IMG/VR virus record: IMGVR_UViG_3300042901_002340
Origin: a virus
Lineage: Duplodnaviria > Heunggongvirae > Uroviricota > Caudoviricetes
DNA length: 64,000 bases
Strand: one strand, 5' to 3'
Position 1 is the first letter of the stretch; the number at the start of each line of letters is the position of its first letter. The translations under genes were made by a program, and so were the position numbers. Below, piece after piece: positions 3,788 through 27,430 of this stretch. The notes beneath the pieces were generated by a model, which saw nothing but the letters and a program-made list of their open reading frames with translations, was not told the origin of the DNA and ran no database searches.

Positions 3788-4324
3788 TTAAGAATAAAAA
3801 ACTTCTTCTATTTGTTTAGGTTCAATGAAAGTTGAAAAATAAGAAACTGATTCAGGGGAAGAAAAAGCTTCCTTTTTCTTGGATGAAGGTATTCCTATTA
3901 TATAATCAATACCATCTAAATTAGTAACACCAGTAACTATATACTCGCTGTCTATGAATAGATTTCTACCCTCTCCACCGTATATATTATCATCCGGTGC
4001 AACATCAGCAGCTTCAACCCTGCTACCTCTAATAGCGTATTGTTCCTTCTCTATTCTTTTTCTTTCTGCATCAAGAGTATCGATGATATGCTGAGGTGCT
4101 TTTTTTCCCTGTGTTGGTAGATCTACAATCATGCTGATTTCCTCCAACTGACCAGTTTTTTGCTGATCTAATAAATCGCTTATATATGAAAATATTTTCG
4201 TTGTTGATACCTCATCTTCAGGATCATTAGAAGGACTTCTTCTAAAATCATCGGCGTTATAAACAGGTATACCGGCCTCATCCAATCCCTCATAGGATTC
4301 AAATTCTAGTAGGTGCTTCATCAT
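3788..4324 (-). CDS. hypothetical protein, putative head-internal protein (leader MMKHLLEFESYEGLDE)
   Basis: 178 aa ORF with the shared N-terminal motif, its own GATATATA element and a terminator. Confidence 0.7.
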   Translation of the reverse strand: MMKHLLEFESYEGLDEAGIPVYNADDFRRSPSNDPEDEVSTTKIFSYISDLLDQQKTGQLEEISMIVDLPTQGKKAPQHIIDTLDAERKRIEKEQYAIRGSRVEAADVAPDDNIYGGEGRNLFIDSEYIVTGVTNLDGIDYIIGIPSSKKKEAFSSPESVSYFSTFIEPKQIEEVFYS

Positions 4325-4338
4325 TTAACTTTTTATTC

Positions 4339-4346
4339 TATATATC
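4339..4346 (-). promoter_or_regulatory. GATATATA putative phage late promoter
   Basis: Recurrent 8-mer shortly upstream of start codons (11 such copies in the window). Confidence 0.65.
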
Positions 4347-4356
4347 TAGAATTTGA

Positions 4357-5622
4357 TTACTTTTTTTTATTGTTAGCTTTATCAGCCTCCATTTTAGTAA
4401 TCTGCGCATGCTTGGCTTTCTCGTGTGCTCCCTTTTTATAGAACTCCATATTTTTTAGTAATCTGTTTTGTTCATCACTCGGAAGAGTTTTAAAGAAAGG
4501 TGCAGTTATGATGGCATTGGTTTTTTCCATAGCTATTTCAGGATTTCCTATATAATGAGCTGCTAACGAGTACTCGTCAAGCAATCTCCATTGCCATATC
4601 TCTGCTTCTATGAAAAGTATATCCTGAGTCCCTCTAGTTTTTATTCCAATGTCTCCGTACGCAAAGGCAATAAGAAATCTTTTTTGCTCTCTATATTTCC
4701 TCATGGTGTGGAAAAGAGCCTCCAATCTAGATGGTCTATATTCCCAAGCTCTCGAATAAAGATTAGTAACTTCCTCTATAGGAGCACCCATTCTTTCCTT
4801 CATCTTAGCAATCATATACATGGAGTAGTAAACTTCCTCTTCCCAGCCACCCATGGCAATTCTCTTATTGTATGCTTCTATAGATTTTTCCAACTGATCA
4901 GAATCTCTGTAACTCTGAGCAAGATAAAACATATATCTGTCATTATCAGGTTCCTTTACAAGAGCTTCCTCTAATATTACTGCATCCTTTGAGTATTTTT
5001 CTTCCAATGAAGCGGCTCTCTTAAGAGGTGAGATATCAGCCATAACAAAGGCATTTGGAACGGGAGCTTGGTATATCTGCTCTTTTTTTTCATCCAGGTG
5101 CAGGTACTCATGCAGAACCCCCTTATATACCCAGTTCTGATCAGATTTAACAATCTGTGCTCTATGGTATTGAAGATTATTCAGCTTATATAAGATCTGA
5201 TAGCAATCGGGAAATTTGTCAAGCCCAGCAAAAGGATTAACATTTGGATTTTCCTGTATGAATGTATCATCCGCATCTATAATCCATCTATAGTCGCATT
5301 TACCCTTTGCTAAATTTAAACTTTCAGTTCTATTGACTTCAAAGTTTACCCAAGGTCTCTGGTGTAATTCTCCAGGAATTCCCAAGGATTCCATAGTTTT
5401 ATTGATAACCTCCAAGGTATTATCACTTGATCCTGTGTCTACGATGACCCAATATTTAATATACGGAGCAACCGCTCTAAGACATCTTTCCATAGTGTCT
5501 TCCTCGTCTTTTACAATCATAACCAGACAAAGGTCTATTACCTGAATGTTATTATGTACGGGTCTAGCTACATTAATCGGAGCAGCTACCTTTTTTTGTT
5601 TCTTTTTATTCTTAACAGCCAT
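4357..5622 (-). CDS. GT2 family glycosyltransferase with C-terminal TPR repeats
   Basis: LVMIVKDEE, VDTGSSDNT, WVNFEVNR, IIDADD, GVLHE; TPR-like helices (RYMFYLAQSYRD, AIEAYNKRI-like SIEAYNKRI, RPSRLEAL). Confidence 0.9.
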   Translation of the reverse strand: MAVKNKKKQKKVAAPINVARPVHNNIQVIDLCLVMIVKDEEDTMERCLRAVAPYIKYWVIVDTGSSDNTLEVINKTMESLGIPGELHQRPWVNFEVNRTESLNLAKGKCDYRWIIDADDTFIQENPNVNPFAGLDKFPDCYQILYKLNNLQYHRAQIVKSDQNWVYKGVLHEYLHLDEKKEQIYQAPVPNAFVMADISPLKRAASLEEKYSKDAVILEEALVKEPDNDRYMFYLAQSYRDSDQLEKSIEAYNKRIAMGGWEEEVYYSMYMIAKMKERMGAPIEEVTNLYSRAWEYRPSRLEALFHTMRKYREQKRFLIAFAYGDIGIKTRGTQDILFIEAEIWQWRLLDEYSLAAHYIGNPEIAMEKTNAIITAPFFKTLPSDEQNRLLKNMEFYKKGAHEKAKHAQITKMEADKANNKKK

Positions 5623-5655
5623 TTAAAACTTTTTAGTTATTATAGTTTAGTTATC

Positions 5656-6294
5656 CTATTTTGCTCCCTTTTTTTTCGATATTTTTATCGATTCAACTTC
5701 ACCGACCGGATCAAATTTTATATATGATGTATATTTTTCATCCAGTTCTCTTTTTATACCTCTTCTATTTCTACTTACGTTTATTAAAGGGATCTCATAT
5801 TTACTAAAGAATACGCCATCAAAAACCCAAACCTTAATATTAAAATATTTATTCTCATATAAACCGTAATCTACTGAGCCAATCTTCAAAAAAAATCTAC
5901 ATTCGAATATATGTTTACCTCTAAGATACAATTCAATAAATATCCAATTATTATCGTGTGGCGAAGATAATATATTCTGTCCGAAATTAACGCAATATAT
6001 TATTTTTTTACTATCAAGATCCAAAATCTTATACTCCAATCCAGCCAAATCAAATATAGATTTTATCAGCTCTGGTATATCATCAGCTTCGCTATATAGA
6101 TTCAGAAAGCAACTAAGCTCGCCGGATTCAAATTTTTTCTGACTTTTGATTTCTACCTCGTCATCCTCCCTTACCAATGAAGAAAAATAATCCAGAGAAT
6201 CATGTAATAGATTTCTCTGGATTATTTCTATATTCTTCTGCTGATTTACTTTTTCTTTTACCGATTTTACAAAATCCTCGCTAGATTTTTTCAT
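5656..6294 (-). CDS. hypothetical protein
   Basis: 212 aa ORF overlapping the adk stop. Confidence 0.65.
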   Translation of the reverse strand: MKKSSEDFVKSVKEKVNQQKNIEIIQRNLLHDSLDYFSSLVREDDEVEIKSQKKFESGELSCFLNLYSEADDIPELIKSIFDLAGLEYKILDLDSKKIIYCVNFGQNILSSPHDNNWIFIELYLRGKHIFECRFFLKIGSVDYGLYENKYFNIKVWVFDGVFFSKYEIPLINVSRNRRGIKRELDEKYTSYIKFDPVGEVESIKISKKKGAK

Positions 6295-6949
6295 CCTTTT
6301 TCTTTTTAATCACCTTAAGTCCTAATTTTTTTACTATAGATTTAAGTACGCCTTCCATACCAAGATCAGCATCGATTTTTATTAATTTTCTACTCTTCTT
6401 GTAAAAATCGATAAGTGGAAATGTCTTCTCGTTGTATTCGGCAAATCTTTTATCTATAACTTCATCACTAGCATCATCTTTTCTATTCTCCTTTTTAGCT
6501 CTATTTCTTATTCTTTCCTTAGCCTTATCCTCGGGAAGATCCATAAAAATTGCATGATTTAAACCAAGACCCAACTTACCAAGTAAAGAATCAAGTTTTC
6601 TTGCTTGCTTTATAGTTCTAGGATAACCGTCAAAAATTATACCCTTATTCAGATCAAGTTTTTTAAGCTCTTTTCTAAGCATTTTAAGCATCATCTCATC
6701 AGAAATGAACTTTCCACCTTCAACTATTTTTTTTAATTCCGGATCATCAGACTTTCTTATCAAATCGCCAGTAGAAATATGATTAATACCAAATTTCTCA
6801 TTTAATTGCTTCGATAAAGTTCCTTTACCCGATCCAGGAGCTCCTAGCATAACTAGTACATCGCCTTGAGAATCGGGAAGCTCTCTTTCATTTAAGAATT
6901 CGTCGAATTTTTTTACAACTTCATCACTAAACCATTTTTTGTTCTCCAT
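6281..6949 (-). CDS. adk: adenylate kinase (short-LID type) with a ~25 aa N-terminal extension
   Basis: GAPGSGKGT P-loop, HISTGDLIR, FDGYPRT, R-DD LID region. Confidence 0.93.
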   Translation of the reverse strand: MENKKWFSDEVVKKFDEFLNERELPDSQGDVLVMLGAPGSGKGTLSKQLNEKFGINHISTGDLIRKSDDPELKKIVEGGKFISDEMMLKMLRKELKKLDLNKGIIFDGYPRTIKQARKLDSLLGKLGLGLNHAIFMDLPEDKAKERIRNRAKKENRKDDASDEVIDKRFAEYNEKTFPLIDFYKKSRKLIKIDADLGMEGVLKSIVKKLGLKVIKKKKDEKI

Positions 6950-6963
6950 TATAATTTATTTTT

Positions 6964-9456: not shown

Positions 9457-9482
9457 ATTTTAGGTTAATTTTTTTTTAATTT

Positions 9483-10466: not shown

Positions 10467-10480
10467 TGTTTTAGTTTTTT

Positions 10481-10948: not shown

Positions 10949-10980
10949 TTTTATTTAGTTTTTGTTAATTTTTAATTCTC

Positions 10981-11047
10981 ATTACTAGACTCTAGATCTC
11001 CCTGGGTTTTTATATATCAACCAGGATTCGGATCTATCGAGAGTAAT
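10981..11047. other. long imperfect stem-loop with GATATATA in its loop
   Basis: Nested inverted repeats ATTACT/AGTAAT, CTC/GAG, TAGATC/GATCTA, CCTGG/CCAGG around TTTATATATC (motif at 11011-11018). Confidence 0.65.
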
Positions 11048-11050
11048 ACG

Positions 11051-12457
11051 TTAATTTTTTGCTTTCTCTAATTGTTTTTTTAAAACATCAATTTCTAGCT
11101 CTAATTCAAGCATTTTATCCTTGGTTTTTCTTCTCCTCGAATATAGATCCTTGATTATTATTTTAAGTATTGGGTTTTCGTCATCATTACCAAAGTAAGC
11201 TCCAGAAGCGCACTTTATCCAAGAATCCTTGGGATTCAATAGATTCTTTCCTTTATATGATTCTGGAGAAATTCCCCACTGAACCATGGCGTTAGGATAC
11301 AGAGAAGCAAAGTCATAACATGCTACCCAACCATGTAATCCCTTTATTGGGTCCTTAACATAACCACCAGCAAATTTAACATGTACCTCCTCTTTTTTCT
11401 CAGCAGTAAGAACCTGTTTTCTTTCAAGAAACTTTTTCATCATCATAACCTCAGTTGACCAGACAGGAGAAAGACATCTGTTTATTTCAACTCCCGATAT
11501 CATGGCAATCTTAAAGAAAGTTTGCATGGTCTTAAGTTTCTGGTCTATGTAATGTACAAGAGCACAATCGACAGCATTATAGTAGATAAAATCCTCGAAA
11601 TTAGATTGGTATAAATCTCTAAGTGTTCCATCATAAGCTATTTTTTTAAAACCAACCGCTTTTTCTGCAACATAATCAAGTCTATTACTTTCCTTAATCT
11701 TAATAACTCTATCCCATTTTTTATAGATTTCCAAATAGTCAAACATCAGAAGATGCTGTGGTAATTGTCCCTTTCCTATAAGTGTTTTTCCCGGAGAGAT
11801 AATCTTAGGATCTATACCGAGTCTTTTAGCTCTATTCAATAGATAGGGCCAGTCATACCCAAGCCAGTTCCATCCGGTCATTGTTGCCATCTTGGGACCA
11901 AGTTCTCTAAAGAATGTGTACATCATATCGTACTCGGTTTCAAATTGTTTATATTTGAAACTCCATTCGTCACCGGTTTTTTCGAAGTATTTGTTTATTT
12001 TATCATAGATACTTCCCTGCTGTTCAGGGGTTAGTGGATCAAGACCAAGAATTAATATCTTTCTTTTATCTGTTCCTATACCTATGGAGAGTACCCTATT
12101 TTTAGCATTTTCCGTATCAAGTGATGCTGCCTTGTCTTCCGTTATCTCAACCTCTATATCGACAAAGTATTTCTTAGGTTCTTGATATTCCCATAATGGT
12201 TTAGTTAATTCTTCAGGTGCTTCTATTAGGATCTGTGCCATCCTATATTTGTCATATCTCTCGGTCTTCACCTTTTTTATTGGTTCGCCCTTCCAGTTTG
12301 CCCATTCCTTATCTCTTTTGGGATCCCCTGGATTGCATCTTTCCCAATTAAATCTTTCTTCCTCGGGTATCGGAACACGAAGGAATGCAAGTTCCCCTTC
12401 GGGACCAAAGTGAGATACATTTAAGTAGCTTCCTTTATTCTCTATATCAATAATCAT
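11051..12457 (-). CDS. family B DNA polymerase, N-terminal subunit only (3'-5' exonuclease + motif A + first finger helix); split polymerase
   Basis: ExoI FVDIEV, ExoII GWNWLGYDWPY, ExoIII YNAVDC, GGYVKDP, motif A YDFASLYP. Ends in a coiled helix with no KxxxNSxYG or YGDTDS. Confidence 0.9.
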   Translation of the reverse strand: MIIDIENKGSYLNVSHFGPEGELAFLRVPIPEEERFNWERCNPGDPKRDKEWANWKGEPIKKVKTERYDKYRMAQILIEAPEELTKPLWEYQEPKKYFVDIEVEITEDKAASLDTENAKNRVLSIGIGTDKRKILILGLDPLTPEQQGSIYDKINKYFEKTGDEWSFKYKQFETEYDMMYTFFRELGPKMATMTGWNWLGYDWPYLLNRAKRLGIDPKIISPGKTLIGKGQLPQHLLMFDYLEIYKKWDRVIKIKESNRLDYVAEKAVGFKKIAYDGTLRDLYQSNFEDFIYYNAVDCALVHYIDQKLKTMQTFFKIAMISGVEINRCLSPVWSTEVMMMKKFLERKQVLTAEKKEEVHVKFAGGYVKDPIKGLHGWVACYDFASLYPNAMVQWGISPESYKGKNLLNPKDSWIKCASGAYFGNDDENPILKIIIKDLYSRRRKTKDKMLELELEIDVLKKQLEKAKN

Positions 12458-12512
12458 CCAGAAATATTTTAATGTATATGTTTTACACCATAATAAACTT
12501 ATGTTCCGGTCA

Positions 12513-12520
12513 GATATATA
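12513..12520 (+). promoter_or_regulatory. GATATATA putative late promoter (plus strand)
   Basis: GATATATAAATAATATG immediately before 12527; motif orientation follows the gene strand. Confidence 0.65.
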
Positions 12521-12526
12521 AATAAT

Positions 12527-12832
12527 ATGAAAAATTTAAAAAAATTTGAGGGTTTTATTAATGAGTGGTTGGATTCACCAGGAAGTATCGATGTTCCAGG
12601 CCAATCTTACGAGACCCGAGTAAACAGAAGAAATTATCAAACTGCAGATCCAACAATGCCCGAAACAATAGATGCAATGTATGAAGCAGCTTACTTCCAT
12701 GATTTTCTTGACGAAAGTGGAAAATCTGAAGAATTTAATAAATTTCTAGACGGAGAAAAAAAGACAGGTTCTGATATAACAGAATATCTAAAAACCGCAT
12801 TTCAGAAAAAAAATTCAAAAAAGGAATCATAA
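12527..12832 (+). CDS. hypothetical protein, putative head-internal protein (leader MKNLKKFEGFINE)
   Basis: 101 aa; shared leader motif; stop/start overlap with the next gene. Confidence 0.7.
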   Translation: MKNLKKFEGFINEWLDSPGSIDVPGQSYETRVNRRNYQTADPTMPETIDAMYEAAYFHDFLDESGKSEEFNKFLDGEKKTGSDITEYLKTAFQKKNSKKES

Positions 12833-13815
12833 TGAGGAACGTACAAAAATTCAATGGTTGGGTAAACGAAGCAAGATTAACCATAAATGTTGACGTCGAA
12901 GAAATTGAGAAAATATACAAACCAGAAAATATAGTTTTTCCTAGTTTATTATTAAAATATTTCGACAATGTAAAAATAGAAGAGATCAAAAAAAATTGTG
13001 CGGATCTTCTCGCAAAAGAATATGATAATAGACTTAACGAGGAACTTAAATGGTTAAAATTTCCAGACAAAGTAGCAACTGGCTATCCCATAATGGAGGC
13101 ACATTTCAAATTTATGGGTAAATTTTATCCCCTCAACGTCGATGTTCCTGCAAATCTAAAAACTGAACAGAAAGGAAAAGAAGGAAATCAGATTTATATA
13201 CCAATAATAGAAAACATCGCAAGAAGTATAAGAATTTTCAAAGACGATGAATCACATGAGGATATTAACAAATCAATAGAATTTCATGCAGGATTAAGTA
13301 AGGTAAAATATGACGAGGAGAAGCTTAAATATATCATAACAAAGCCTAAGGACAACTACGATTATAAAATAGTTATTCAAACGGACGGTAGTGTTCTTAC
13401 AGAGGAGGAATCGAAAAAAGTACCAAAAGAAAATATAGGTATGGATAACTCCAAAATAAAAACATACAACCTTAAACAGGGTAAACCTATAAAATTCGCT
13501 TCAAAATTAGGTGAAGATGGGTTTATTACAGGTAAAGTTTTTAGAATTATAAACAAAAAATTTAAAAAGTTCGGTAGAAGTGATAATTGGGCCATCTTTG
13601 ACGACCACATAGAGATGGATCTTGAATTCGAGAGGGACGGAAAAAACCTAAAGGTTCATAAAACTTTTAAACCGGGCGACATAATTTATTTACCTCTTGG
13701 TGAAAATAAGAAATTTATAAGATGCGAGGTTGCAAAACCTTTCTATGTTGCAAACCCAGTACTTAAAGAACCAATAAATCTAAGGGTAAAAATATCAAAA
13801 CAGGACAGCATCTAA
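12832..13815 (+). CDS. hypothetical protein, putative head-internal protein (leader MRNVQKFNGWVNE)
   Basis: 327 aa, Lys-rich; shared leader motif; TAATG coupling to the previous gene. Confidence 0.7.
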   Translation: MRNVQKFNGWVNEARLTINVDVEEIEKIYKPENIVFPSLLLKYFDNVKIEEIKKNCADLLAKEYDNRLNEELKWLKFPDKVATGYPIMEAHFKFMGKFYPLNVDVPANLKTEQKGKEGNQIYIPIIENIARSIRIFKDDESHEDINKSIEFHAGLSKVKYDEEKLKYIITKPKDNYDYKIVIQTDGSVLTEEESKKVPKENIGMDNSKIKTYNLKQGKPIKFASKLGEDGFITGKVFRIINKKFKKFGRSDNWAIFDDHIEMDLEFERDGKNLKVHKTFKPGDIIYLPLGENKKFIRCEVAKPFYVANPVLKEPINLRVKISKQDSI

Positions 13816-14957: not shown

Positions 14958-15383
14958 TTATCTATAGTCTCCTCTAGCCTCTTTCCTCTTTAGATATTGC
15001 CAAAGAAAGTTTAATCCTTTAGCGTAATCCTTAGCAGATTTAAAAGGGTCCGAGAATTTTTTTATATCGTTACCGTTTCCTTCTTTTACTTCCTTGGACT
15101 TTATTGGATTATATCTCCTCACTGTACCTGAGGGATGTATGGTATAGAAAACATCACCATGCCCAAGTTCTTTTTGTTTCTTAACACTTCTCACAAACTT
15201 CATTGTGTTATTTAGCTCTTGCTGATGTGAAGTGTCCTCATCAAAACCAAGAGCCAATAGTCTTCTATACTCCCTAGATTTTCTTACCCTATCCAATTCA
15301 ATTTCTCTTCTATACTCGGTTTTATATTCATATTCAGGAGAATATGATTTAAAGTCAAGAAGATGTTTCATCTGCTTCTTCAT
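14958..15383 (-). CDS. hypothetical protein, putative head-internal protein (leader MKHLLDFKSYSPE)
   Basis: 141 aa; shared leader motif. Confidence 0.65.
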   Translation of the reverse strand: MKKQMKHLLDFKSYSPEYEYKTEYRREIELDRVRKSREYRRLLALGFDEDTSHQQELNNTMKFVRSVKKQKELGHGDVFYTIHPSGTVRRYNPIKSKEVKEGNGNDIKKFSDPFKSAKDYAKGLNFLWQYLKRKEARGDYR

Positions 15384-15772: not shown

Positions 15773-15780
15773 TATATATC
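15773..15780 (-). promoter_or_regulatory. GATATATA putative late promoter
   Basis: Motif 20 nt upstream of the 15753 start, directly after a terminator. Confidence 0.65.
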
Positions 15781-16517: not shown

Positions 16518-17063
16518 TTATCTACTTATAATTAATGATTTTTCACTTGAGCCAGTTTGAACCGACCAATTTTTGCCGAGTTGAGACACACATATCGACT
16601 TCATATACTCTATGTATTCACCCTTACCTTTATATTCCAAATTGTCTTGCAAATTATCATACATCCTTACAACCTTAGGATTGAAAGAAAGGTAATCCAG
16701 AACACATTTGAATATCTGCTCCATGAGTCTAGATAGCTCATTTCCATCAACAAGAAATTCAGAACTACTAACCGAAGGTATATCCTCCTTATCAACTGCT
16801 ATATCCTCTATAAGTTCATGGCCTATTTGGTTTATGTTAAGCACACAATAAGAATTTTTAGCACCCTCTATAGGCTCATTCTCAGAATATTTACCTATTA
16901 TAAGATGGTATCCCATTTCATGTTCCTCGTCTTCGCTATCAAGACTGAAGAAATAATGATATACATCACTTACTTTCTTCATCAGGAATGGTGATGTACC
17001 AAATCCGTCATTCTCATTAACCGGACTTGTAAATTGATCAAATGATGCAATAAACTTTTTCAT
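16518..17063 (-). CDS. hypothetical protein, putative head-internal protein (leader MKKFIASFDQFTSPVNE)
   Basis: 181 aa; shared leader motif; last gene of the 20604->16518 operon. Confidence 0.65.
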   Translation of the reverse strand: MKKFIASFDQFTSPVNENDGFGTSPFLMKKVSDVYHYFFSLDSEDEEHEMGYHLIIGKYSENEPIEGAKNSYCVLNINQIGHELIEDIAVDKEDIPSVSSSEFLVDGNELSRLMEQIFKCVLDYLSFNPKVVRMYDNLQDNLEYKGKGEYIEYMKSICVSQLGKNWSVQTGSSEKSLIISR

Positions 17064-17065
17064 TT

Positions 17066-19099: not shown

Positions 19100-19120
19100 A
19101 AGTAGCTTTTTTAATGTTTA

Positions 19121-20053
19121 TTATTGTATTCTGTTAATCTCTGTAGGTATTTCTAGTCCAACCCTCTGTAAAAATTCCACAAATCTTTCCTTTATTTCTG
19201 GTAATTTGTTTATAAGTTCAAACTCAGGAGAAGTTATTATTTTAAATAACTGTTCAAAAGTTTTAACATCATCAGTAGTATAACCTTTACCTAAAGCAAA
19301 ATCTATAAATTCCTGAGGATCATTAGTAACAAATCTTTCGCTTCCTTCTATTTTCTTAGGATTCTTTAATCTGTCTTTTATCTTCCCTCTGTAAGATTTT
19401 GTATGCCAATATAGACCATCGCTTAAAATAAGAACAGGTGTGTTATAATCCAAGACCTCACCAATTTCATTTCTCTCCATAATCTCCTTCCTTGCCGACA
19501 ATATCGCGGCTAGTAACCAGTTTCTATGTGCCGATTTATATTTACTTTCCCTCGTTTTGTAATTTGGTGAATAATATATAAAATCTGCCCATTTCATGTC
19601 TGACAGTGGTATAAGATCAAGTTGAACTAATCCATTATTCTTGTCACCATTTATTGGCCACCCCAGACTAACTATATTGAGACCCTTCAGATAATTTATC
19701 TCAGTAGTAAATCCAAGAATATCGCCAATACCATTTTTTATTTTATCGTAAATAAACCCAGAACATTCCTTTCTTTCTATCCCATTATCCAGAGAGTACC
19801 AAGTTGCATCATAACCAATATCCAAATCTCCCGATGTATCATCAGGATTTTCTTTCTTCCCTATGCTACCAATGATAACATACTGATCATTTATTTTGTT
19901 TGGGTCTATACCGATGAGAGGAAAAAGATTTTCCTGAATACTTTTTAGCGTTTCGGAAAATTCGTCCTCCCTTATTCTTCTAGAAGTTTTTATAGCTGCC
20001 CCTCCCTCGAATATTGAACTAAATCTAGCAAAATCGATAATCCTATTACTCAT
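19121..20053 (-). CDS. Pol-beta superfamily nucleotidyltransferase
   Basis: IGSIGKK...SGDLDIG (GS + DxD) and third Asp in VQLDLI; leader MSNRIIDFARFSSIFE. Confidence 0.75.
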   Translation of the reverse strand: MSNRIIDFARFSSIFEGGAAIKTSRRIREDEFSETLKSIQENLFPLIGIDPNKINDQYVIIGSIGKKENPDDTSGDLDIGYDATWYSLDNGIERKECSGFIYDKIKNGIGDILGFTTEINYLKGLNIVSLGWPINGDKNNGLVQLDLIPLSDMKWADFIYYSPNYKTRESKYKSAHRNWLLAAILSARKEIMERNEIGEVLDYNTPVLILSDGLYWHTKSYRGKIKDRLKNPKKIEGSERFVTNDPQEFIDFALGKGYTTDDVKTFEQLFKIITSPEFELINKLPEIKERFVEFLQRVGLEIPTEINRIQ

Positions 20054-20604
20054 TATCTTTTTTTCCTAGTTTTTTTATAATATGAATTCATTACATCCTT
20101 TAGATAATCTCTGTATATTTCCTCATCCTTGGATTTAGGATTTTGAGGTGAAAAATCATCACCAAAATATTTTTTACCTCTCAGAACACCAGACTTATAA
20201 AATTCCTCAGCATCCTGCTCAGTCACATTTTTATTCTCTATATGCTCAGCTTCCCATTTTTTAATAATCTCATCTTTTCTTCTTCTTATTTCGTCCTTGT
20301 CAAGATCCTTCCAAGATTTAGTATCTTCACCAGGGGAAAGAAAATCTATAAAGGAAGCAGTTCCTTTTGCAACAGCTCCTGTAACAACAGCAATTGCGCG
20401 GGAAGCACTTTTCATACTGGAAAGGTTAGGATCAGAATCGCTATAATAGCTGCTATATCCGCTATCACCAATACCTATCTGATTTCCAATTTTTCTAAGC
20501 CATCTTGTGAAAGATGTTTTTCCGTGAGCATCATAATATTCAGAATTTCCATATGATTCTTGGATATTAGATTTATTGAATTCATCAAAAGATTTTATAG
20601 TCAT
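20053..20604 (-). CDS. hypothetical protein, putative head-internal protein (leader MTIKSFDEFNKSNIQE)
   Basis: 183 aa; first gene behind a GATATATA element. Confidence 0.65.
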   Translation of the reverse strand: MTIKSFDEFNKSNIQESYGNSEYYDAHGKTSFTRWLRKIGNQIGIGDSGYSSYYSDSDPNLSSMKSASRAIAVVTGAVAKGTASFIDFLSPGEDTKSWKDLDKDEIRRRKDEIIKKWEAEHIENKNVTEQDAEEFYKSGVLRGKKYFGDDFSPQNPKSKDEEIYRDYLKDVMNSYYKKTRKKR

Positions 20605-20622
20605 TAGTAAAAAATGTTTTTC

Positions 20623-20630
20623 TATATATC
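20623..20630 (-). promoter_or_regulatory. GATATATA putative late promoter
   Basis: Motif about 19 nt upstream of the 20604 start. Confidence 0.65.
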
Positions 20631-20641
20631 CTTAATATAAA

Positions 20642-21580
20642 TTAAAGTTTAACGTTGTATATCTTATATTCAAAACCTTCCTTCTTATAAATCTCTATTC
20701 TTTCGATGCTATGTTTAGCAAGATAGCTCTTATATTTTCTTGTACTAAAATCATCAACAAAATCTATGACATTAACCTTTTCCTTACCCTCCATCTTTCT
20801 CATTCCCCTACCCAAACTTTGTTTTATAAGGATTTCGCTCTTGTATGACTCGACAAGAAATATATTATGCAGATTGTTTATTGATATCCCAGTGGAGAAT
20901 GTTCCGTACGTCGCAATTAGGACCTTATTAGAGCCGATTGACATTCTTCTCTTATATTCCTCTCTCAAAGCCTCACTAGTGTCGCCATCAACATAAAACA
21001 CCTCTCTATCGCCATTTAATTCTCTGAGAAGATTCCATATCTGCTTACCGTACTCCTCCTTAACAGATTGGAATAAAACCAGGGAGTTTTTAGATGTCTT
21101 ATTTATGAATTCAGTAACATAATTCAGACGTTTTCTACTTTCAATAACTAACTTTCTTTCAAGATTATAAATCTCGTTACCTTCAACGTTATTATCACTA
21201 AGTTTAAGGTCGGCTAATTTTTCTTTATAGACAGGGTCTAACCAATCCATAGTAACTACCTTTATGGAAACAGGAGTTGCATACCCATTATCAAAAAGAA
21301 AACTGGGTGGGATCTCCATCACAAGGGGTCCAAGAAATTGTTGTATAGTCAAATAGTCAGCAGTTCCCTTTTTGGTCAGAGTTCCTGTTAATCCAAATCT
21401 CCATTTGGAATGCATACATTGGGAAACTATCTTCTTTATCGAGGTACTATTTGTATGATGACAATTACTAACAAGAATTCCATTAGCTATATAATTGTGA
21501 TTTAATCCATCATCCGATAATATCCTGAGATTGTATACATTATCCGATGTTTCTATTTTGCTAATTTTTTTTATCTTCAT
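20642..21580 (-). CDS. uvsW: UvsW-like SF2 helicase, C-terminal part, fused to C-terminal split-intein fragment
   Basis: First 39 aa are IntC, then CHH..., RFGLTGT (III), VFYVDG, ATYGTFSTGISI (V), QSLGRGMR (VI). Confidence 0.92.
   Translation of the reverse strand: MKIKKISKIETSDNVYNLRILSDDGLNHNYIANGILVSNCHHTNSTSIKKIVSQCMHSKWRFGLTGTLTKKGTADYLTIQQFLGPLVMEIPPSFLFDNGYATPVSIKVVTMDWLDPVYKEKLADLKLSDNNVEGNEIYNLERKLVIESRKRLNYVTEFINKTSKNSLVLFQSVKEEYGKQIWNLLRELNGDREVFYVDGDTSEALREEYKRRMSIGSNKVLIATYGTFSTGISINNLHNIFLVESYKSEILIKQSLGRGMRKMEGKEKVNVIDFVDDFSTRKYKSYLAKHSIERIEIYKKEGFEYKIYNVKL
21464..21580 (-). mobile_element. split intein C-fragment (IntC, 39 aa)
   Basis: MKIKKISKIE...VYNLRI (block F)...HNYIANGILVSN (block G) followed by +1 Cys. 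Confidence 0.92.
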
Positions 21581-22397
21581 AATTTTTTATTTTTATAGCT
21601 TTTTCAATTCTGTTAGCTATTTTATCAGATTCTGGTTGTCCATTCAATAAATCCCTTCTATAATTAGCGGAAATCCAATTCTCGTCTATATAGTTGAATT
21701 TATACCCGTTTATTTTACACCATTCGTCTGCTGCATACATCTTATCTAAACAATCCTCCTTCTTATTACGTGGCTTAATCTCATATATTATTTTTTTATC
21801 CATATCACAAAAATCTACTATATAATTGCGTAATTTATTCTTTTTTGAATCAAGGTACTCTATTCTTATGTTCTCATATAGAAAATCGGGATTTATAATA
21901 TAAAATAAAGCTTCCCATGAGGATCTAACTTTAACTATTTTATTTTTTATTAGTACTTCTATTTTTCCACCATAGAGAGAATTATTTACACCAGGCGTAA
22001 AGATCCCACATTTTATTTTCTTTCTAACAATTGAGGATAATTTAATTTTCATTGAATTTTTACTCTCATCCGTCATTCTATGCGACGTGTTATTTAATTT
22101 CTGTTTTTCAGAAAAATCCGCATCCGCACAATTTCTGCAACAGAAATCATTAAGAATCCACTTTCTTCCTGATTTTATTTTTTTTTTATTTTTACATCCA
22201 TTAAATTTGCATATACCATTATCAGGATCACAATAGATTAATAGATCATATAATGTTTCGATGTAATAGGGAATGTCAAATAGATTTGTATTTTTGACAT
22301 TAGTAACAATCCTAGTATTAAAATCAGGGATTTCCCTAACTTTTAATATGGAGAGTCTTCTTGAATTTTCATAAAGATACAGATAAAGTGGATTCAT
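21561..22397 (-). mobile_element. free-standing putative homing endonuclease (Cys-rich/Zn region + TnsA/gp4-like PD-(D/E)XK domain)
   Basis: CKFNGC...FCCRNC; VRSSWE...YEN..IEY...YIVDF...YEIKP; located between IntN and IntC. Confidence 0.78.
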
Positions 22398-22420
22398 ATG
22401 TTTGTATGATGAGGTTTGTT

Positions 22421-23431
22421 TTATATATCAAAAAGCTCATCGTAATAATTAAGAGCATCGACTCTTTTCCATTCACCATTTTTTAATTTAACCTTATGAT
22501 TTCCGGTTACCTTAAGAATCTTTCCACATTCTGTCTCTATCTTGTACATTTGTTTATCTTTATTTAGATTTTTATATACAAATTCCACGGTTCTTTTCTC
22601 CTGCCCATTAGTAATATCGTTAATAGTTAATACGGAATCTCCAATATTAACATCAGATATTTTTTTATAACCGCCATCAGCCATACTTACCAATGAATCC
22701 GGAGATAAACACTCATCTATAAATACGCAATCAACCTCGTCAAAAAAATCAGATTCTCTTTTAACCAGGGATTGGTATGTACCTATTATTATATCGCAGC
22801 CATCCTTGATCTTACTTCCACCACCTATCTGCTGAATCTTCACACCGTCTAATTTATCAAGTCCATATTCCTCAAAATCATCATTACCCTGGAATACAAG
22901 ATTGGAATTGGGTACGATCATAAGGATCTTTCTTACCATTCCTTTTGATTTTAGATATGCAAATATCATAAACGATATAAGTGTCTTACCTGATGAGGTT
23001 GCAACCTCAGAAACTGAATACCTATACCTCAATATCTTCCATGCGGTCTCTATTTGGTAATCTCTAGGCATCTTATCTGGATTACCACCTATACCCCCCT
23101 CGAAAAATTCATTAACCCACTGAGTAAATTCATCAAGCTTAACGTCGTCAGTTACGACGCTGTTTAATCCTTCTATTTTTATATCAATTCTGTATTTCTC
23201 GCCGATATCCAATAATTCCCTCCAGAGACCTATTGGAACTTTCCAGAATCCACCTCTCTTCTCTATGAAACATATAGATCCATCCCAAATCTTTTTCTTG
23301 ACTAGAGGATGGAAAAAATGATTATGTATTTTTTGAGTCAGCGAGATCTCGACTTGCTTTTTCTCAACCTCATCAAGTGCTTCCAAGAGAAGCATCCATT
23401 GATGATCATCAGTTACTCTAAATTTTAACAT
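22421..23431 (-). CDS. uvsW: UvsW-like SF2 helicase, N-terminal part, fused to N-terminal split-intein fragment
   Basis: PRDYQ Q-motif, ATSSGKT Walker A, IVPNSNLV, GTYQSL, VFIDE then IntN. Confidence 0.92.
   Translation of the reverse strand: MLKFRVTDDHQWMLLLEALDEVEKKQVEISLTQKIHNHFFHPLVKKKIWDGSICFIEKRGGFWKVPIGLWRELLDIGEKYRIDIKIEGLNSVVTDDVKLDEFTQWVNEFFEGGIGGNPDKMPRDYQIETAWKILRYRYSVSEVATSSGKTLISFMIFAYLKSKGMVRKILMIVPNSNLVFQGNDDFEEYGLDKLDGVKIQQIGGGSKIKDGCDIIIGTYQSLVKRESDFFDEVDCVFIDECLSPDSLVSMADGGYKKISDVNIGDSVLTINDITNGQEKRTVEFVYKNLNKDKQMYKIETECGKILKVTGNHKVKLKNGEWKRVDALNYYDELFDI
22422..22429 (-). promoter_or_regulatory. GATATATA putative late promoter for the endonuclease, overlapping the IntN stop codon
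   Basis: Minus strand TTT GAT ATA TAA encodes F-D-I-stop and contains GATATATA, 25 nt before the endonuclease ATG. Confidence 0.6.
22424..22711 (-). mobile_element. split intein N-fragment (IntN, 96 aa)
   Basis: CLSPDSLVSMADG (block A), KISDVNIGDSVL, LKVTGNHKV (block B TxxH), WKRVDAL, then stop. Confidence 0.92.
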
Positions 23432-23440
23432 TCTATAATT

Positions 23441-23884: not shown

Positions 23885-23885
23885 A

Positions 23886-24131
23886 TTAAAATAGTTTTGG
23901 TTTGTTTTTAGATCCTCTCTTTTTGGGTAGATCTAAAACTTTAATTTCATTTTTATTTTCTACGATCTTTTTTTCAACTGGTTCATTTATTTTAGGCTCC
24001 TCAAAATCTATATCAATATTCAAAGAATCGTCACCAGAAACTATTATAGGAAATTTTATCTTAGATTTCTGATTTCTAGTTATCTCATTCTCCCAATTGT
24101 CTATTAAATTTTGCTGATCAATCTTAGTCAT
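23886..24131 (-). CDS. hypothetical protein (likely start MTKIDQ at 24131)
   Basis: ATG overlaps the primase stop (AATGACTAA); the longer ORF-track start overlaps primase by 77 nt. Confidence 0.55.
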   Translation of the reverse strand: MTKIDQQNLIDNWENEITRNQKSKIKFPIIVSGDDSLNIDIDFEEPKINEPVEKKIVENKNEIKVLDLPKKRGSKNKPKLF

Positions 24132-25188
24132 TGATAAAATATCTGAGGTCAAGTATATCATTCGTAAAATAGTTATCCATCCTTTTAACCTTTTTTCCAA
24201 TTGCTCTTAAGTGTATAACAAGATCATTAAGATCCCATTTTCTATTCTTGGTTATACCGTTCTCCTCGAGAAATTTACCCCAGTTAAAAACGGTCTCTCC
24301 CTTACTTAAAAGATCCATGCTTTTTCCTATTCCTGCTTTATCCCAGTCATAGAAGTATTTTTTGTTTTCGACATCAAAAGGAAATCTGTTCTCAAGCGAA
24401 CATAAACCAACAGAATTTGGCCAAAAGAAAGAATCCATTGGTCCTTCGAAAACTGTTATTTCGTGAGAGAAGTCAAGATTACCGATACCGAAAACATTTG
24501 ATATTGGATCGACATCCCTCGCTCTATCCAAAATGGATTCGTCAGTAATATTAAGTAACTTCTCGTATATTCCACTGAGCTTATAGGTTAAATATTTAGA
24601 ACTTCCTTTTATGGAGTTCATATTTCTAACCTGAAGCCCGATTATTTTCTCATCAGGAGTTAGATTGAACAGAAAGAGTCTTTCCTTTCTTGGATCCCAA
24701 GCAAATTTCATATCTGGCTTTTGGTGTCTCCTAGTAATATACCTATGTATAGAAGATCCGAAGACTTCCTGCAATCTAAGTTTTTTAATGAAATCCGCTC
24801 TAGATATTAATAGATCACTTATATCGTTATCAAAGAAATAAGTTATGTCTATCTTTCCTATGGCTGATCTTCTTTTTGTTTTATTTGTATCTATTATGGA
24901 CCTTAATTCCTCACGCTCCTCCCCACTAAATCTTGAATAGAGGGAAAAATCCTTAAAGAACGAAATTGAATCCTTGTAAATTCCACATCCACCATTATAA
25001 CATTTGTATGCCATAGTATCCATGTAGAAATTACCTCTTTTCTTTCTAGCATCATTCGAGTCTCCACAATAAGGACACGAGAAATTCAAACGATTCCCCG
25101 CTTTATAAACTATCTGTTTATTTGGATCTCTAGAAAATTCCTTTGCTAGAACGTCCCTTACTGCTCTTTCGATTTTATCTAGTTGCAT
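24124..25188 (-). CDS. DNA primase (T4 gp61-like)
   Basis: Zn finger NFSCPYCGDS...YKCYNGGC; TOPRIM VFEGPMDS and YDWD; DLND. Confidence 0.9.
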   Translation of the reverse strand: MQLDKIERAVRDVLAKEFSRDPNKQIVYKAGNRLNFSCPYCGDSNDARKKRGNFYMDTMAYKCYNGGCGIYKDSISFFKDFSLYSRFSGEEREELRSIIDTNKTKRRSAIGKIDITYFFDNDISDLLISRADFIKKLRLQEVFGSSIHRYITRRHQKPDMKFAWDPRKERLFLFNLTPDEKIIGLQVRNMNSIKGSSKYLTYKLSGIYEKLLNITDESILDRARDVDPISNVFGIGNLDFSHEITVFEGPMDSFFWPNSVGLCSLENRFPFDVENKKYFYDWDKAGIGKSMDLLSKGETVFNWGKFLEENGITKNRKWDLNDLVIHLRAIGKKVKRMDNYFTNDILDLRYFIND

Positions 25189-25198
25189 CTTTACAAAA

Positions 25199-25234
25199 TA
25201 AAAAGGGACAACTCGTCTAAGGAGATGTCCCTTT
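25199..25234 (-). terminator. intrinsic terminator after the SSB gene
   Basis: AAAGGGACA...TGTCCCTTT stem with an inner CTC/GAG pair and an A-run. Confidence 0.75.
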
Positions 25235-25245
25235 ATTTCTAATTA

Positions 25246-26226
25246 TTATAGGTCGTTATAAAGATCCTCTAATGAATTTGTTGAACTAGGAGCGCTAGTA
25301 GCTGAAGCAGCGGTATTTGCATACCCACTTACTTTAGTGTTACTAACTTCATCATATAGATCGTTAGCAGCATTACTTGTTTCTGGAGCGGGTTGTCTAG
25401 CAGGTGCTGATTGAGGAGCTGGTCTGGAAGGAGCTGAAGCAGCACCACCTAAGATTTCGTTAAGAACTCTTTGCTCTGGAACGCTGTTTCTGATAACCCC
25501 CATAACTTTCTCAGTAAGATCGTCATCCCAATCCTTATAATCAAAGCTTGTTAGATTCTTAGGTCCTTCGTTTAAATAAGCAAGAATAACCTCCATGTCC
25601 TTTTGGTTTTTCTCCATACCTTTACCATTAACCTTGATTGATGTTTTTTCACCAACGAAAGAGCAAAGGTCATAGTTATTCCACTCGCCAACTTTTCTTA
25701 CACTTACCGAAAATTCTCTTCCTTCAAAAAGATCGAAAGGATTGCAGGGAGCACCATATTCAGGTTGCAATTGAGCCTCGATCATATCGTTAAGCTTTTT
25801 ACCAAACTTGAAGATCATAATCTTCCCTTCTAATTCTGGTCTATTCTTATCTTGTACGATTTGAACTAAAGAATAGAAATCCTCCTTCCTTGCGAAGTTT
25901 TTAGATAACTCCTGATCAGCAGCAGAATGTGAATTCTTAAGTTTCCAGAATAAATCCTTTAATACCGATTTTTTACCAACAGTTGAAGGACAATCTGCAG
26001 AAAACCCGTCACCACTTACTGGATCTTTTAAATATACATAATATTTATGGATTTTTGATTTTGCTGGATTCTCCGGATTTGGTAAGAATCTAATCAATGA
26101 TTTATATACACCATCTTTACCATCCTCTGGATATGGTTTATAAAAATCATCTTTGTCTCCTCCTGTTGTTGGAACTTTTGTTACGAATGCCTCTGCATCC
26201 AAATTGAAAATGTCTAAATTACTCAT
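25246..26226 (-). CDS. single-stranded DNA-binding protein (T4 gp32-like)
   Basis: IRFLP, CPSTVG, FKFGKKL, NPFDLFEG, NYDLCSF, Pro/Ala linker and acidic tail LEDLYNDL. Confidence 0.88.
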   Translation of the reverse strand: MSNLDIFNLDAEAFVTKVPTTGGDKDDFYKPYPEDGKDGVYKSLIRFLPNPENPAKSKIHKYYVYLKDPVSGDGFSADCPSTVGKKSVLKDLFWKLKNSHSAADQELSKNFARKEDFYSLVQIVQDKNRPELEGKIMIFKFGKKLNDMIEAQLQPEYGAPCNPFDLFEGREFSVSVRKVGEWNNYDLCSFVGEKTSIKVNGKGMEKNQKDMEVILAYLNEGPKNLTSFDYKDWDDDLTEKVMGVIRNSVPEQRVLNEILGGAASAPSRPAPQSAPARQPAPETSNAANDLYDEVSNTKVSGYANTAASATSAPSSTNSLEDLYNDL

Positions 26227-26302
26227 CTTTCTTAATTTTTTTAATTTGTTTTTTAATTTGTTTTTAATTCTTTAAATTTTACTTTTGTTTTTACTTTTGT
26301 TT
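26227..26302 (-). repeat. A-rich tandem repeats in the SSB 5' leader
   Basis: Minus strand (AAACAAAAGTAA)x2 then (AAACAAATTAAAA)x2-3 right before the ATG. Confidence 0.7.
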
Positions 26303-26459
26303 CCTCTAATCTTATAATATTACATTTTTTTATTTTTATGGTGAATATCAAACAGCAAAAATACACCAGATAATTATTACCTAGTGTCAAATTGTATATG
26401 ATAAAATATTGATTGCGTGTTCTATGAATTGGGAAGACTCAGACAGAGCCAATAGGACA

Positions 26460-27182
26460 TTACCCCAATTTCTTTGTAGTTTTTTTACTTTTTGATTTTC
26501 CTTTAATAACCTCATTATTTCCTCTTAATTCCTCTTTTAAATACAAATTGACCCAAGTTGAATCGACAACGTCATCTATCGGCTTATTTATTGCCTTAGC
26601 TGGTGTTATCCATTCTGTTTTATTCTCTTCTAATATCTTACAGAATACATTTAAGTTTGTTTCATCCTCTCTTAAATTATATAAGGAGTGATATAATTCA
26701 TCCTTTTTTGCGTTACCCTTTACTGCGAATTTTTTTAAAGTTGTTGGTGAAAAAACATAAAAGTTTTCACTTCCAATTCTATCCATTATTCTTTCTCTCA
26801 GTAAGGCTGTCGCCATAGATATATCTACAAGTGAGTTGCCATTAGACGAAAAACTTAGACCCTCCATTGCTACGTGGAATGGTTCATCGCCCATAACTTC
26901 TAATATAGAACTCCAAAGAACTTCAACAACTTCTAAGAAGTAATCCATTTTTTCTCTTTCCCTAGCAGAATATTCTGTGGTAAATTCTTGTTTTTTTAAT
27001 ACCTTTATAACAAAGCTATCATCAGAATCAAGTATAAAATATGGTTTTTTCTTATTCTTTAATAAAGATTCAAACGTTCTGTCCGATCTTGAAACTGATC
27101 CCCATATATATCTATTATTCTTGAAACAGCAGAATGCGGGGGAGTTCAGAGAAAAGTCGATGCCAACGCAACGTAAATTCAT
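26460..27182 (-). CDS. RuvC-like Holliday junction resolvase
   Basis: GIDFSLNSPA, AMEGLSF, PTTLKKFAVKGNAKKD, DDVVDS. Confidence 0.8.
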   Translation of the reverse strand: MNLRCVGIDFSLNSPAFCCFKNNRYIWGSVSRSDRTFESLLKNKKKPYFILDSDDSFVIKVLKKQEFTTEYSAREREKMDYFLEVVEVLWSSILEVMGDEPFHVAMEGLSFSSNGNSLVDISMATALLRERIMDRIGSENFYVFSPTTLKKFAVKGNAKKDELYHSLYNLREDETNLNVFCKILEENKTEWITPAKAINKPIDDVVDSTWVNLYLKEELRGNNEVIKGKSKSKKTTKKLG

Positions 27183-27193
27183 ATAATTATTTG

Positions 27194-27430
27194 TTACTGG
27201 TTAATATCCTGTTTTTGTCCAACCGAATTTGTTGTTCCATAAACTTTAGATAATTTACCGAAACAGGTCTTAACTTGCTCCTCAGTAAGACAATCTATAA
27301 TATCGTCAAGGACTCTTCTATCGTTACCACAAGCTGCGATAAGTAGATTTTTCATATGATCTTTCTCACCATATAGCGGTTGACCATATTTTGCTTCATT
27401 TAATTCTTTTAAATCGGAGAATGTTTTCAT
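27194..27430 (-). CDS. hypothetical protein, putative head-internal protein (leader MKTFSDLKELNE)
   Basis: 78 aa; leader very close to T4 internal-protein leaders; GATATATA upstream. Confidence 0.65.
   Translation of the reverse strand: MKTFSDLKELNEAKYGQPLYGEKDHMKNLLIAACGNDRRVLDDIIDCLTEEQVKTCFGKLSKVYGTTNSVGQKQDINQ

Follow-up and report, generated by a model that had tools for sequence, protein, structure and literature searches.

Why should unrelated proteins of one phage begin alike? In T4 the capsid targeting sequence (CTS) is the MKTYQEFIAE of IPII and IPIII, the IPI and Alt propeptides are related to it, and other T-even phages have polymorphic internal proteins that carry a CTS. The question was raised here by a window of 64,000 nucleotides (the whole stretch of DNA analysed), which is contained in a complete IMG/VR phage genome of 430,120 bp. 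The phage is uncultured and of T4 type, and its host probably belongs to the Bacteroidota. Its genome encodes a protease of the T4 gp21 type (Peptidase_S77, PF03420, scoring above the Pfam cut-off), a gp23-like capsid protein whose alignment to T4 gp23 begins at residue 5, portal and sheath proteins, and a gp55-like late factor. A 9-kb portion of the window, compared by megablast with the phages in GenBank, gave no match; at least 80 related loci are present in IMG/VR. The first-pass annotation had reported nine similar N-termini in the window, and an ORF check found each of them at the frame named (the positions given were the low ends of the ORFs, so that in a gene on the minus strand the leader is encoded at the opposite, high-numbered end). 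Its claim of a shared N-terminal leader on unrelated proteins was borne out, and the set proved larger than had been noted, with some 50–60 leader genes among the approximately 633 obtained by simple longest-ATG-ORF calling of the whole genome.

The leader has the consensus M-x-x-[ILV]4-x-x-F7-x-x-[FYW]10-[IL]11-N-E13. The pattern [LIVM]xxFxx[FYW], when made to begin at residue 4, was found in 27 genes versus 0.77 expected from internal positions (P about 4e-32), and the fixed-register enrichment of the core pattern was about 35-fold. In 1000 shuffles of residues 2–25, the pattern occurred in 6.2 ± 2.6 genes (maximum 16), versus 45 genes with the N-termini unshuffled. An iterated position matrix found 57 genes at 9 bits or more, where less than one was expected; its most informative columns are F7, [FYW]10, [IL]11 and E13, and a few true signal peptides among its matches were excluded. 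Like a T4-type capsid targeting tag, the motif is right at the N-terminus and keeps a constant register relative to Met1. A putative cut site, [ILVF]xE within 14 residues after F7, is present in 36 of 50 leaders (P = 4e-12; the frequency is 23% in other N-termini and 20% in internal windows) and is absent from the other 14. At the 36 sites, P3 is Ile (16), Leu (13), Val (4) or Phe (3), P2 is Asn in 19, P1' is mainly Ala, Ser or Gly, and the Glu is most often residue 13. The F7 and F10 codons are a mixture of TTT and TTC near the genome-wide ratio, which places the conservation at the protein level, and a nucleotide-level signal was rejected because synonymous codons vary at the conserved residues.

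The nine leader genes of the window had been said to lie nearly all in units headed by the box GATATATA; in fact all nine are in such same-strand units. On the minus strand, a box at 4339..4346 heads a gene for a 178-aa protein (3788..4324; MMKHLLEFESYEGLDE then A) that has no Pfam or PHROG match. The adenylate kinase gene adk (6281..6949, minus strand) encodes an N-terminal extension bearing the leader, ..VVKKFDEFLNE then RELPD, with the Pfam ADK domain starting at residue 34. The leader occupies residues 11–21 of the longest ATG frame (MENKKWFSDEVVKKFDEFLNE), and in most orthologues it is at the very N-terminus. The box for this unit, at 11011..11018 (minus strand), also heads a dUTPase-like gene and two genes that, from the first residues of their frames, we take to encode ribonucleotide reductase. 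On the plus strand, a box at 12513..12520 heads a gene for a 101-aa protein (12527..12832; MKNLKKFEGFINE then W), which has the top leader score within the window, and a gene for a 327-aa protein (12832..13815; MRNVQKFNGWVNE then ARL), for which the ESM Atlas gave no usable lead. The remaining units are on the minus strand. A box at 15773..15780 heads a DUF3008 gene followed by the gene for a 141-aa leader protein (14958..15383; MKKQMKHLLDFKSYSPE). A box at 20623..20630 heads four genes: that for a 183-aa leader protein (20053..20604; MTIKSFDEFNKSNIQE then S), which opens the unit, that for a 310-aa leader protein resembling PolX/Pol-beta nucleotidyltransferases (19121..20053; MSNRIIDFARFSSIFE then GGAAIK), that for an untagged 677-aa protein (RNA-ligase/cytidylyltransferase-like), and finally that for a 181-aa leader protein (16518..17063; MKKFIASFDQFTSPVNE then N). 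A box at 27450..27457 heads the gene for a 78-aa protein (27194..27430) with a short variant of the leader (MKTFSDLKELNE then A), in which an aromatic at residue 4 and Leu at 7 are in the T4 CTS register. Eight window cargo proteins and two others gave no PHROGs match.

Genome-wide, GATATATA is the nearest upstream intergenic promoter motif for 51 of 60 leader genes versus 162 of 573 others (P = 7e-18); a host-type TAnnTTTG box precedes 2 of 50 leader genes versus 88 of 583 others. GATATATA is found directly upstream of the sheath, head-closure, portal and protease genes and of an endolysin gene, and it also directly precedes three large window genes, which from N-terminal resemblance are probable tail fibre genes. 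Judged by its position, the box that precedes leader genes appears to be a late-type promoter common to head and tail genes. Because adk is in a ribonucleotide-reductase operon behind GATATATA, the box may not be strictly late.

The gp21-type protease is part of a 654-aa protease-scaffold protein (phrog_207, head maturation protease, E = 1.4e-38). This protein begins ..NLNE12, and its C-terminal part consists of 13 repeats with an exact 14-residue spacing, each with Y[LIV][AG]E. It is alone in the genome in having three [IL]NE[ASG] sites (P = 1e-4). No sequence match to it was found among solved structures, and sequence similarity to gp22 was not detectable. The capsid protein N-terminus, MKLINE..WSP[IL]IE..HSLNE then SAGAY, is identical in every one of the 46 relatives listed, except for the I/L of the middle site, and the sites LINE6, LIE18 and SLNE43 are conserved. 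The [IL]xE sites of capsid, protease and scaffold thus look like the same putative cut motif as that of the leaders. One leader protein encoded next to the capsid gene is all-helical, long-helix and scaffold-like. This protein and the 13 regular repeats with (L/I/V)-x-E recall T4 gp22 and gp67/gp68, and would be consistent with a core that is processed to small fragments, like T4 gp22. The difference from gp22 is that the scaffold repeats are here fused to the protease; the same fusion is annotated in the cultured relative Tenacibaculum phage PTm1.

By mutagenesis in T4, targeting was assigned to CTS residues 4 and 7 and processing to residues 8 and 10 (PMC9026906). T4 YQEFIAE aligns with F-E-x-F-I-N-E of the present leader, three residues later, and so the four conserved leader positions correspond one-to-one to the four mutationally defined targeting and processing residues of T4, shifted by three, which supports a T4-type tag. 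Scored with this phage's matrix, the T4 CTS gave -9.2 in the same register and 7.9 when shifted by three residues. The negative same-register score, the 14 of 50 leaders without a nearby [ILVF]xE and the leaderless 45 kb of PTm1 (below) are observations that run against the T4 reading. The two phages share an extreme N-terminal tag of 10–20 residues on otherwise unrelated proteins, a pair of aromatic or hydrophobic positions at a spacing of three with (I/L)-x-E immediately after them, a gp21-type protease with the same cut motif in capsid and core proteins, and tagged genes scattered outside the head cluster behind promoters that here appear to be of late type. They differ in several respects. 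Here the predicted tag is one helical turn longer, its T4-like core being preceded by M-K-x-[ILV]-K-x. Asn is the usual P2 residue, the distance from helix to cut site varies from 0 to about 10 residues, sizeable enzymes are among the cargo, and the host is probably one of the Bacteroidota. There are also about 55 tagged proteins versus about 4–8 in T4; that some 9% of genes would be cargo, far above T4's handful, counts against the T4 reading.

The phiKZ-like giant phages (phiKZ, 201phi2-1 and SPN3US) are reported to have heads with tens of proteins, many of which are cut after Glu by a T4-related prohead protease and then ejected (PMC7411985, PMC10052503). The likeness is that of giant myoviruses whose head and ejection proteins have propeptides cut by a prohead protease. 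The phiKZ-like phages cut at (S/A/G)-x-E, and their long, dissimilar propeptides are not known to have one short leader in common, whereas the present phage has I/L/V at P3 and uses one compact consensus leader again and again. The leaders do not match the phiKZ-type cut motif: in place of a small P3 the 36 leader sites have I, L, V or F.

The leader is conserved in the manner of a propeptide. In the stretch ahead of a near-invariant GGAAIKTSRRIREDEF, nothing but F8, F11 and E16 is retained across 118 homologues of the 310-aa protein; Adk orthologues retain ..F..F[LI]NE then RELPD; and orthologues encoded near the capsid gene keep both leader elements through indels. Leader genes directly after the capsid gene are kept in 41 of 41 relatives. 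Of three cargo families searched, two gave hundreds of homologues and the third only nine; for the 327-aa protein, 9 close homologues were found, and the leader was kept in the four read (P0242, P0244, P0247 and P0249). This propeptide-like pattern across orthologues supports the reading of the leader as a removable tag. Further away, the distant huge phage LR756500 has a weak trace of the leader only, the distant huge phage Lak-A2 has a different repeated N-terminus, and no leader was seen in the last 45 kb of PTm1. Close to the capsid gene, leader genes vary no more between relatives than the genes beside them (median gene in 36 versus 40 of 40 other loci), which fits poorly with a pool of pure arms-race cargo.

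Beyond the leader, 60 leader proteins fell into 55 BLAST clusters with different Pfam domains, and paralogy was rejected as the source of the leader on these grounds. The cargo proteins are up to 492 aa in size, and most have no Pfam match. Five have peptidoglycan-related domains (SLT, CHAP, glucosaminidase-like, OmpA-like and Tlde1/YkuD); the others that can be named are adenylate kinase, a second P-loop kinase, a RimK-like ATP-grasp enzyme, a ferritin-like protein, the PolX-like nucleotidyltransferase and the scaffold-like helical protein. There is no obvious reason for packaging housekeeping-type enzymes such as the two kinases and the ATP-grasp enzyme, which speaks against the T4 reading. 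Mature cargo proteins are not unusually basic or acidic (median pI 5.97 versus 5.82); T4 internal proteins are. The AlphaFold model of the 310-aa protein has an overall pLDDT of 87.8, with leader residues 1–17 below 50 and unstructured, and none of the fold matches takes in residues 1–17. Foldseek against the PDB gave weak Pol beta/lambda matches only (best E = 5e-3), and VIA-align to family X polymerases gave Z = 9.0–9.4; PolX-like is an assignment of the modelled fold, not of function.

We consider it probable, at roughly 0.7, that the leader is a T4-type capsid-targeting propeptide removed by the phage protease. The steps of docking, cleavage, packaging and ejection that we infer are as follows. 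The amphipathic N-terminal segment (hydrophobic residue 4, Phe 7, aromatic 10) would dock a newly made late protein onto the prohead scaffolding core. After shell assembly, the gp21-type serine protease would cut after the Glu of [I/L]-x-E, usually [I/L]-N-E before Ala, Ser or Gly. The mature protein would be released inside the head and could exit with the DNA at infection. The tag would have been placed on about 55 mostly unrelated proteins, with at least one gain by spread of a promoter-plus-leader cassette. The first-pass annotation had proposed a T4-like targeting and cleavage signal, and this core was supported by every computational test run (protease, [IL]xE in head proteins, promoters of apparently late type, unrelated cargo, propeptide-like conservation and T4 residue match). 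Its further proposal, that the tagged proteins are injected and are a likely pool of anti-defence and takeover factors, gained no support from the nameable cargo, in which no recognised anti-defence protein was found.

The possibility to be weighed most seriously is that the leader is a protease-removed propeptide but not an address, keeping potentially harmful enzymes inactive or complexed until the head protease is active, with no say in packaging or injection. The cleavage half of the motif is indeed its best supported part, and the SLT, CHAP, glucosaminidase-like and Tlde1/YkuD cargo could harm the producing cell. We think this unlikely nonetheless: T4-type prohead proteases do not occur outside the prohead core, and so a substrate must be inside to be cut; the most conserved residues, F7 and F10, are upstream of the cut site and match T4 targeting rather than processing residues; and the AlphaFold leader is detached from the fold and does not occlude the active site. 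Less likely still is a capsid-unrelated role, either as a docking helix for a chaperone or other late complex or as a translation aid for leaderless or near-leaderless late mRNAs. In eleven genes, most of them leader genes, the distance from GATATATA to the ATG is just 4 bases, and the tag is found on Adk and other metabolic enzymes. However, the untranslated leader is at least 20 bases long in over half of the leader genes, the sheath, portal and probable fibre genes have the same promoter without the leader, synonymous codons are free to vary, and the terminal [IL]xE common to the capsid protein and scaffold would be left unexplained. The five peptidoglycan-related cargo proteins might suggest an unconventional export signal carrying cell-wall enzymes and others to the periplasm. 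This is improbable, given that cytoplasmic enzymes are tagged too, that the genome encodes a classical endolysin without the leader, and that the leaders are charged and amphipathic, their longest uncharged run being mostly 5 residues or fewer (maximum 9) versus 9–16 in the genome's real signal peptides. Sec, Tat and lipoprotein signal peptides were rejected because the leaders lack the uncharged hydrophobic stretch, about 10 or more residues long, that follows the basic N-region of such signals. That the common N-terminus is a remnant of paralogous-family ancestry or a chance pattern is scarcely credible, for although the members of one five-member family have a C-terminal domain in common and a weak relationship links one pair near the capsid gene, the 55 clusters and the enrichment at fixed register say otherwise.

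Proteins that enter the cell with phage DNA are active ahead of any phage gene expression, which makes them prime candidates for roles in counter-defence and host takeover. As a rule they come to light only through virion proteomics of cultured phages, and a tag that marks them would give a direct candidate list for a whole uncultured giant-phage clade. The T4 capsid-targeting code would be shown to be ancient and portable, and compact natural tags would be usable for loading foreign proteins into large capsids, as the T4 CTS already is. More tentatively, at chances we put a little short of even, the N-terminal targeting code aromatic-x-x-aromatic-[I/L]-x-E may be common to coliphage T4 and a large uncultured clade of giant phages, whose hosts are probably Bacteroidota, as a conserved feature. 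In that clade it would have been enlarged so that roughly one-tenth of the proteome is loaded into the head and delivered with the DNA, including cell-wall enzymes of T6SS-effector kinds, nucleotide kinases, an ATP-grasp enzyme and the PolX-like nucleotidyltransferase. In that case, sequence alone would be enough to read off which proteins uncultured T4-type phages inject. The nameable cargo suggests that such phages come equipped with cell-wall and nucleotide enzymes of their own, along with a PolX-like nucleotidyltransferase.

The first-pass annotation reported about nine window proteins sharing an N-terminal leader, hydrophobic-xx-F-xx-F and then [ILV]xE. All nine N-termini were found at their ORFs, and the leader proved much commoner genome-wide. 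The pattern [LIVM]xxFxx[FYW] occurred at residue 4 in 27 genes versus 0.77 expected from internal positions. In the comparison with shuffled N-termini, set beforehand as a test, 45 N-termini carried the pattern versus 6.2 +/- 2.6 in the shuffles. An iterated matrix, with the consensus M-[KE]-[HNR]-[IL]-K-x-F-E-x-[FWY]-[IL]-N-E-[A], placed 57 genes above a threshold at which fewer than one was expected. True signal peptides were then taken out and visible variants such as MKRIKTFxQLFE put in, giving a working set of 60 proteins that accounts for 9.9% of proteome residues. An [ILVF]xE site lies within 14 residues of F7 in 36 of 50 leaders, versus 23% of controls; in these 36 sites, P2 is Asn 19 times and P1' is mostly A, S or G. 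Within the first 25 residues, [IL]NE shows a 2.7-fold enrichment, most often with the Glu at position 13.

The window corresponds to bases 319,430-383,429, read on the reverse strand, of the genome, a 430,120-bp IMG/VR record with direct terminal repeats that is rated complete. G+C content is 35%, and a simple longest-ATG-ORF call gave 633 genes, which take up 91% of the sequence; one strand carries 566 of these genes. Judged by sequence, the phage is T4-type. It encodes a gp23-type major capsid protein, whose alignment to T4 gp23 begins at residue 5, together with portal and sheath proteins, a gp55-like late transcription factor, and a Peptidase_S77 (gp21-type) prohead protease within a 654-aa protein. 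In GenBank, capsid protein identity is highest to an uncultured 462-kb phage (45%), followed by the Lak megaphages of Prevotella (43%) and by phages of Tenacibaculum, Flavobacterium and Chryseobacterium (about 32%); at least 80 IMG/VR loci encode capsid proteins that are 70-96% identical. Because of the hosts of these relatives, and because the motif TAnnTTTG, which we take to be the Bacteroidota -7 promoter box, is common upstream of genes in this genome, the host probably belongs to the Bacteroidota.

Among upstream 8-mers, GATATATA was the most enriched: of its 93 genomic copies, 68 lie no more than 80 bases ahead of a gene start. It stands immediately before the genes for sheath, head closure, portal and protease, before a classical endolysin gene without the leader, and before three large window genes whose N-termini suggest tail fibres. 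All nine window leader genes, where the first-pass annotation had said nearly all, lie in GATATATA-headed units. Genome-wide, the box was directly upstream of 23/50 leader genes versus 46/583 other genes, and was the nearest upstream intergenic promoter motif for 51/60 versus 162/573 (P = 7e-18); the host-type TAnnTTTG box preceded 2/50 and 88/583, respectively. GATATATA may not be strictly late, because the box at window 11011-11018 heads a unit of a dUTPase-like gene, two frames whose first residues read as putative ribonucleotide reductase subunits, and adk. At eleven genes, mostly leader genes (e.g. L006:18760-18781, L011:1205-1225 and window 12513-12529; L006 to L020 denote stretches of this genome), the box ends only 4 bases from the ATG. 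Transcripts from T4 late promoters start about 6 bases past the box; with the same spacing here, the mRNAs of these eleven genes would be leaderless. Palindromic GATATATATATC boxes between divergent genes (L015:4140-4205, L006:480-545) look like two-way late promoters. Two adjoining portal-protein paralogues, L019:11968-13584 (538 aa, phrog_213 E = 2e-54) and L019:13589-15238 (549 aa, E = 2e-68), have GATATATA at the head of the first only.

Orthologue alignments showed which parts of the leader are kept. Across 118 homologues, the 310-aa window protein shows free variation over its first 13 residues at all positions but F8 and F11; E16 is invariant and is followed by a near-invariant GGAAIKTSRRIREDEF. 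Orthologues of adk mostly start M-E-x-I-K-x-F-x-x-F-L-N-E/RELPD (a slash marks the predicted cut after Glu); the window adk has ten additional residues ahead of the leader. One adk orthologue, P0015, is a natural deletion variant in which exactly the leader core is gone (..EVVKKFDEFLNER..) and the remainder is kept. In alignments of genes near the capsid gene, the F..F and [ILV][ND]E elements are both kept, and the stretch separating them carries indels of 0-10 residues. For the 327-aa window protein, nine close homologues only were found, with the leader kept in the four whose sequences were read. The tagged set therefore spans core as well as narrow-range genes. In two cell-wall enzyme genes (CHAP and glucosaminidase-like), nucleotide identity is 82% in the 40 bases upstream and 77% across the leader, and it falls to 24% right after INE. 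A promoter-plus-leader cassette has become attached to differing cargo.

The same sites occur in the head proteins. The capsid protein begins with MKLINE, then WSP[IL]IE, then HSLNE/SAGAY, and these sites are identical across all 46 relatives listed, except for I/L in the middle site. Cuts after the predicted Glu would leave new N-termini such as GGAAIK.., RELPD.. and ARLTINVD.. on leader proteins and SAGAYNS.. on the capsid protein. The protease N-terminus carries ..NLNE12, with [IL]xE kept there in relatives. In the 654-aa protein (L020:6176-8140, genome 286176-288140) a scaffold-like tail is fused to the prohead protease, whose domain spans residues 1 to about 230; this C-terminal part has 13 repeats (..YSEYLAENLDKxIx..) at an exact 14-residue spacing, and every repeat contains Y[LIV][AG]E, an (L/I/V)-x-E site. 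C-terminal to the repeats are three [IL]NE[ASG] sites, a number found in no other protein of the genome (P = 1e-4). A scaffold cleaved apart at (L/I)xE would be expected to look like this. The three genes directly downstream of the capsid gene start with a leader or a leader-like sequence; two occur in 41/41 relatives and the third, of 86 aa, in 24/41, and they diverge faster than the capsid protein (40-51% versus 79% identity). The predicted structure of the 384-aa post-capsid protein (pLDDT 79.7) is nearly all long helices, making it scaffold-like as modelled, and its conserved VNE/G site falls at the end of a low-confidence segment. In the Prevotella phage Lak-A2 (L111:8554, 37988, 39118; TAG read as Gln), three genes near the capsid gene share a different N-terminus, MNK[LQ]I[KR]xL[IL]E[NS]LFDD[IY]DD, which could be that clade's own equivalent of the leader or could reflect paralogy.

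Mutagenesis of the T4 capsid targeting sequence (CTS), MKTYQEFIAE, assigned residues 4 and 7 mainly to targeting and 8 and 10 to processing, and the CTS alone packages foreign proteins (PMC9026906). Against our matrix the T4 CTS scored -9.2 in the same register and +7.9 when shifted by three residues. The shift places T4 Y4, F7, I8 and E10 on F7, F10, I/L11 and E13; thus the four conserved positions of the leader are the four functional positions of the CTS, and the leader differs in having one extra turn in front of them. T-even internal proteins are described as diverse defence proteins with the CTS as their sole common part (PMC3012670). A literature search found no description of such a leader expansion in huge phages.

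Cargo behind the leader includes adenylate kinase, an SLT transglycosylase, a ferritin-like protein, CHAP, a glucosaminidase match under the Pfam cut-off, an AAA_33 kinase, an OmpA-like protein, Tlde1/YkuD, a RimK-like ATP-grasp enzyme and the PolX-like 310-aa protein; the remaining leader proteins had no Pfam or PHROG match. The 310-aa model is confident (pLDDT 87.8, pTM 0.81), with residues 1-17 below pLDDT 50. Foldseek matches were weak; the body of the protein aligned with family X polymerases at Z = 9.0-9.4 over 164-190 residues, the leader lying outside every alignment. The late-type unit of this protein also encodes, flanked by leader genes, a 677-aa protein without the leader (window 17066-19099, minus strand). 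It has a weak RNA-ligase match and what reads as a KMDG lysine motif at its N-terminus, and its C-terminal domain is cytidylyltransferase-like. A 468-aa family B DNA polymerase frame (window 11051-12457, minus strand), with two plus-strand leader genes directly upstream, encodes the exonuclease domain and no more than the beginning of the polymerase domain; the remainder of this split polymerase must be encoded elsewhere. On the minus strand at window 20642-23431, three frames follow one another: a ResIII/DEAD helicase frame with a Hint/intein N-part at its end (22421-23431), a separate gene for a TnsA-like endonuclease that has its own GATATATA (21561-22397), and a frame opening with an intein C-terminal-like motif (20642-21580). 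A free-standing endonuclease gene seems to have split an intein here.

Several readings of the leader were weighed. A propeptide without a targeting role is less consistent with the data, as is some other late docking or translation role; TTT/TTC usage at the leader Phe positions matches genome usage, and therefore selection is on the peptide. An export signal also fits less well. So does paralogy: with leaders removed, the 60 proteins fell into 55 BLAST clusters, in keeping with the earlier description of the leader-bearing window proteins as unrelated. Five leader proteins (genome starts 100584, 102820, 103611, 104366 and 174343; L011:584-5475, L014:14343-14921) have a common C-terminal domain of about 45-70 residues, and most of them carry the variant leader MK[RN]IKTFxQLFE. 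Three points count against T4-type loading and clipping: so many proteins are tagged, the cargo includes housekeeping-type enzymes, and 14 leaders have no site close by. In sum, the observation in the first-pass annotation stood and was extended, and its proposal of a T4-like capsid-targeting and cleavage signal is, by sequence logic, the best explanation: with a probability of roughly two in three, the leader proteins of this phage would be loaded into the head and clipped as in T4.
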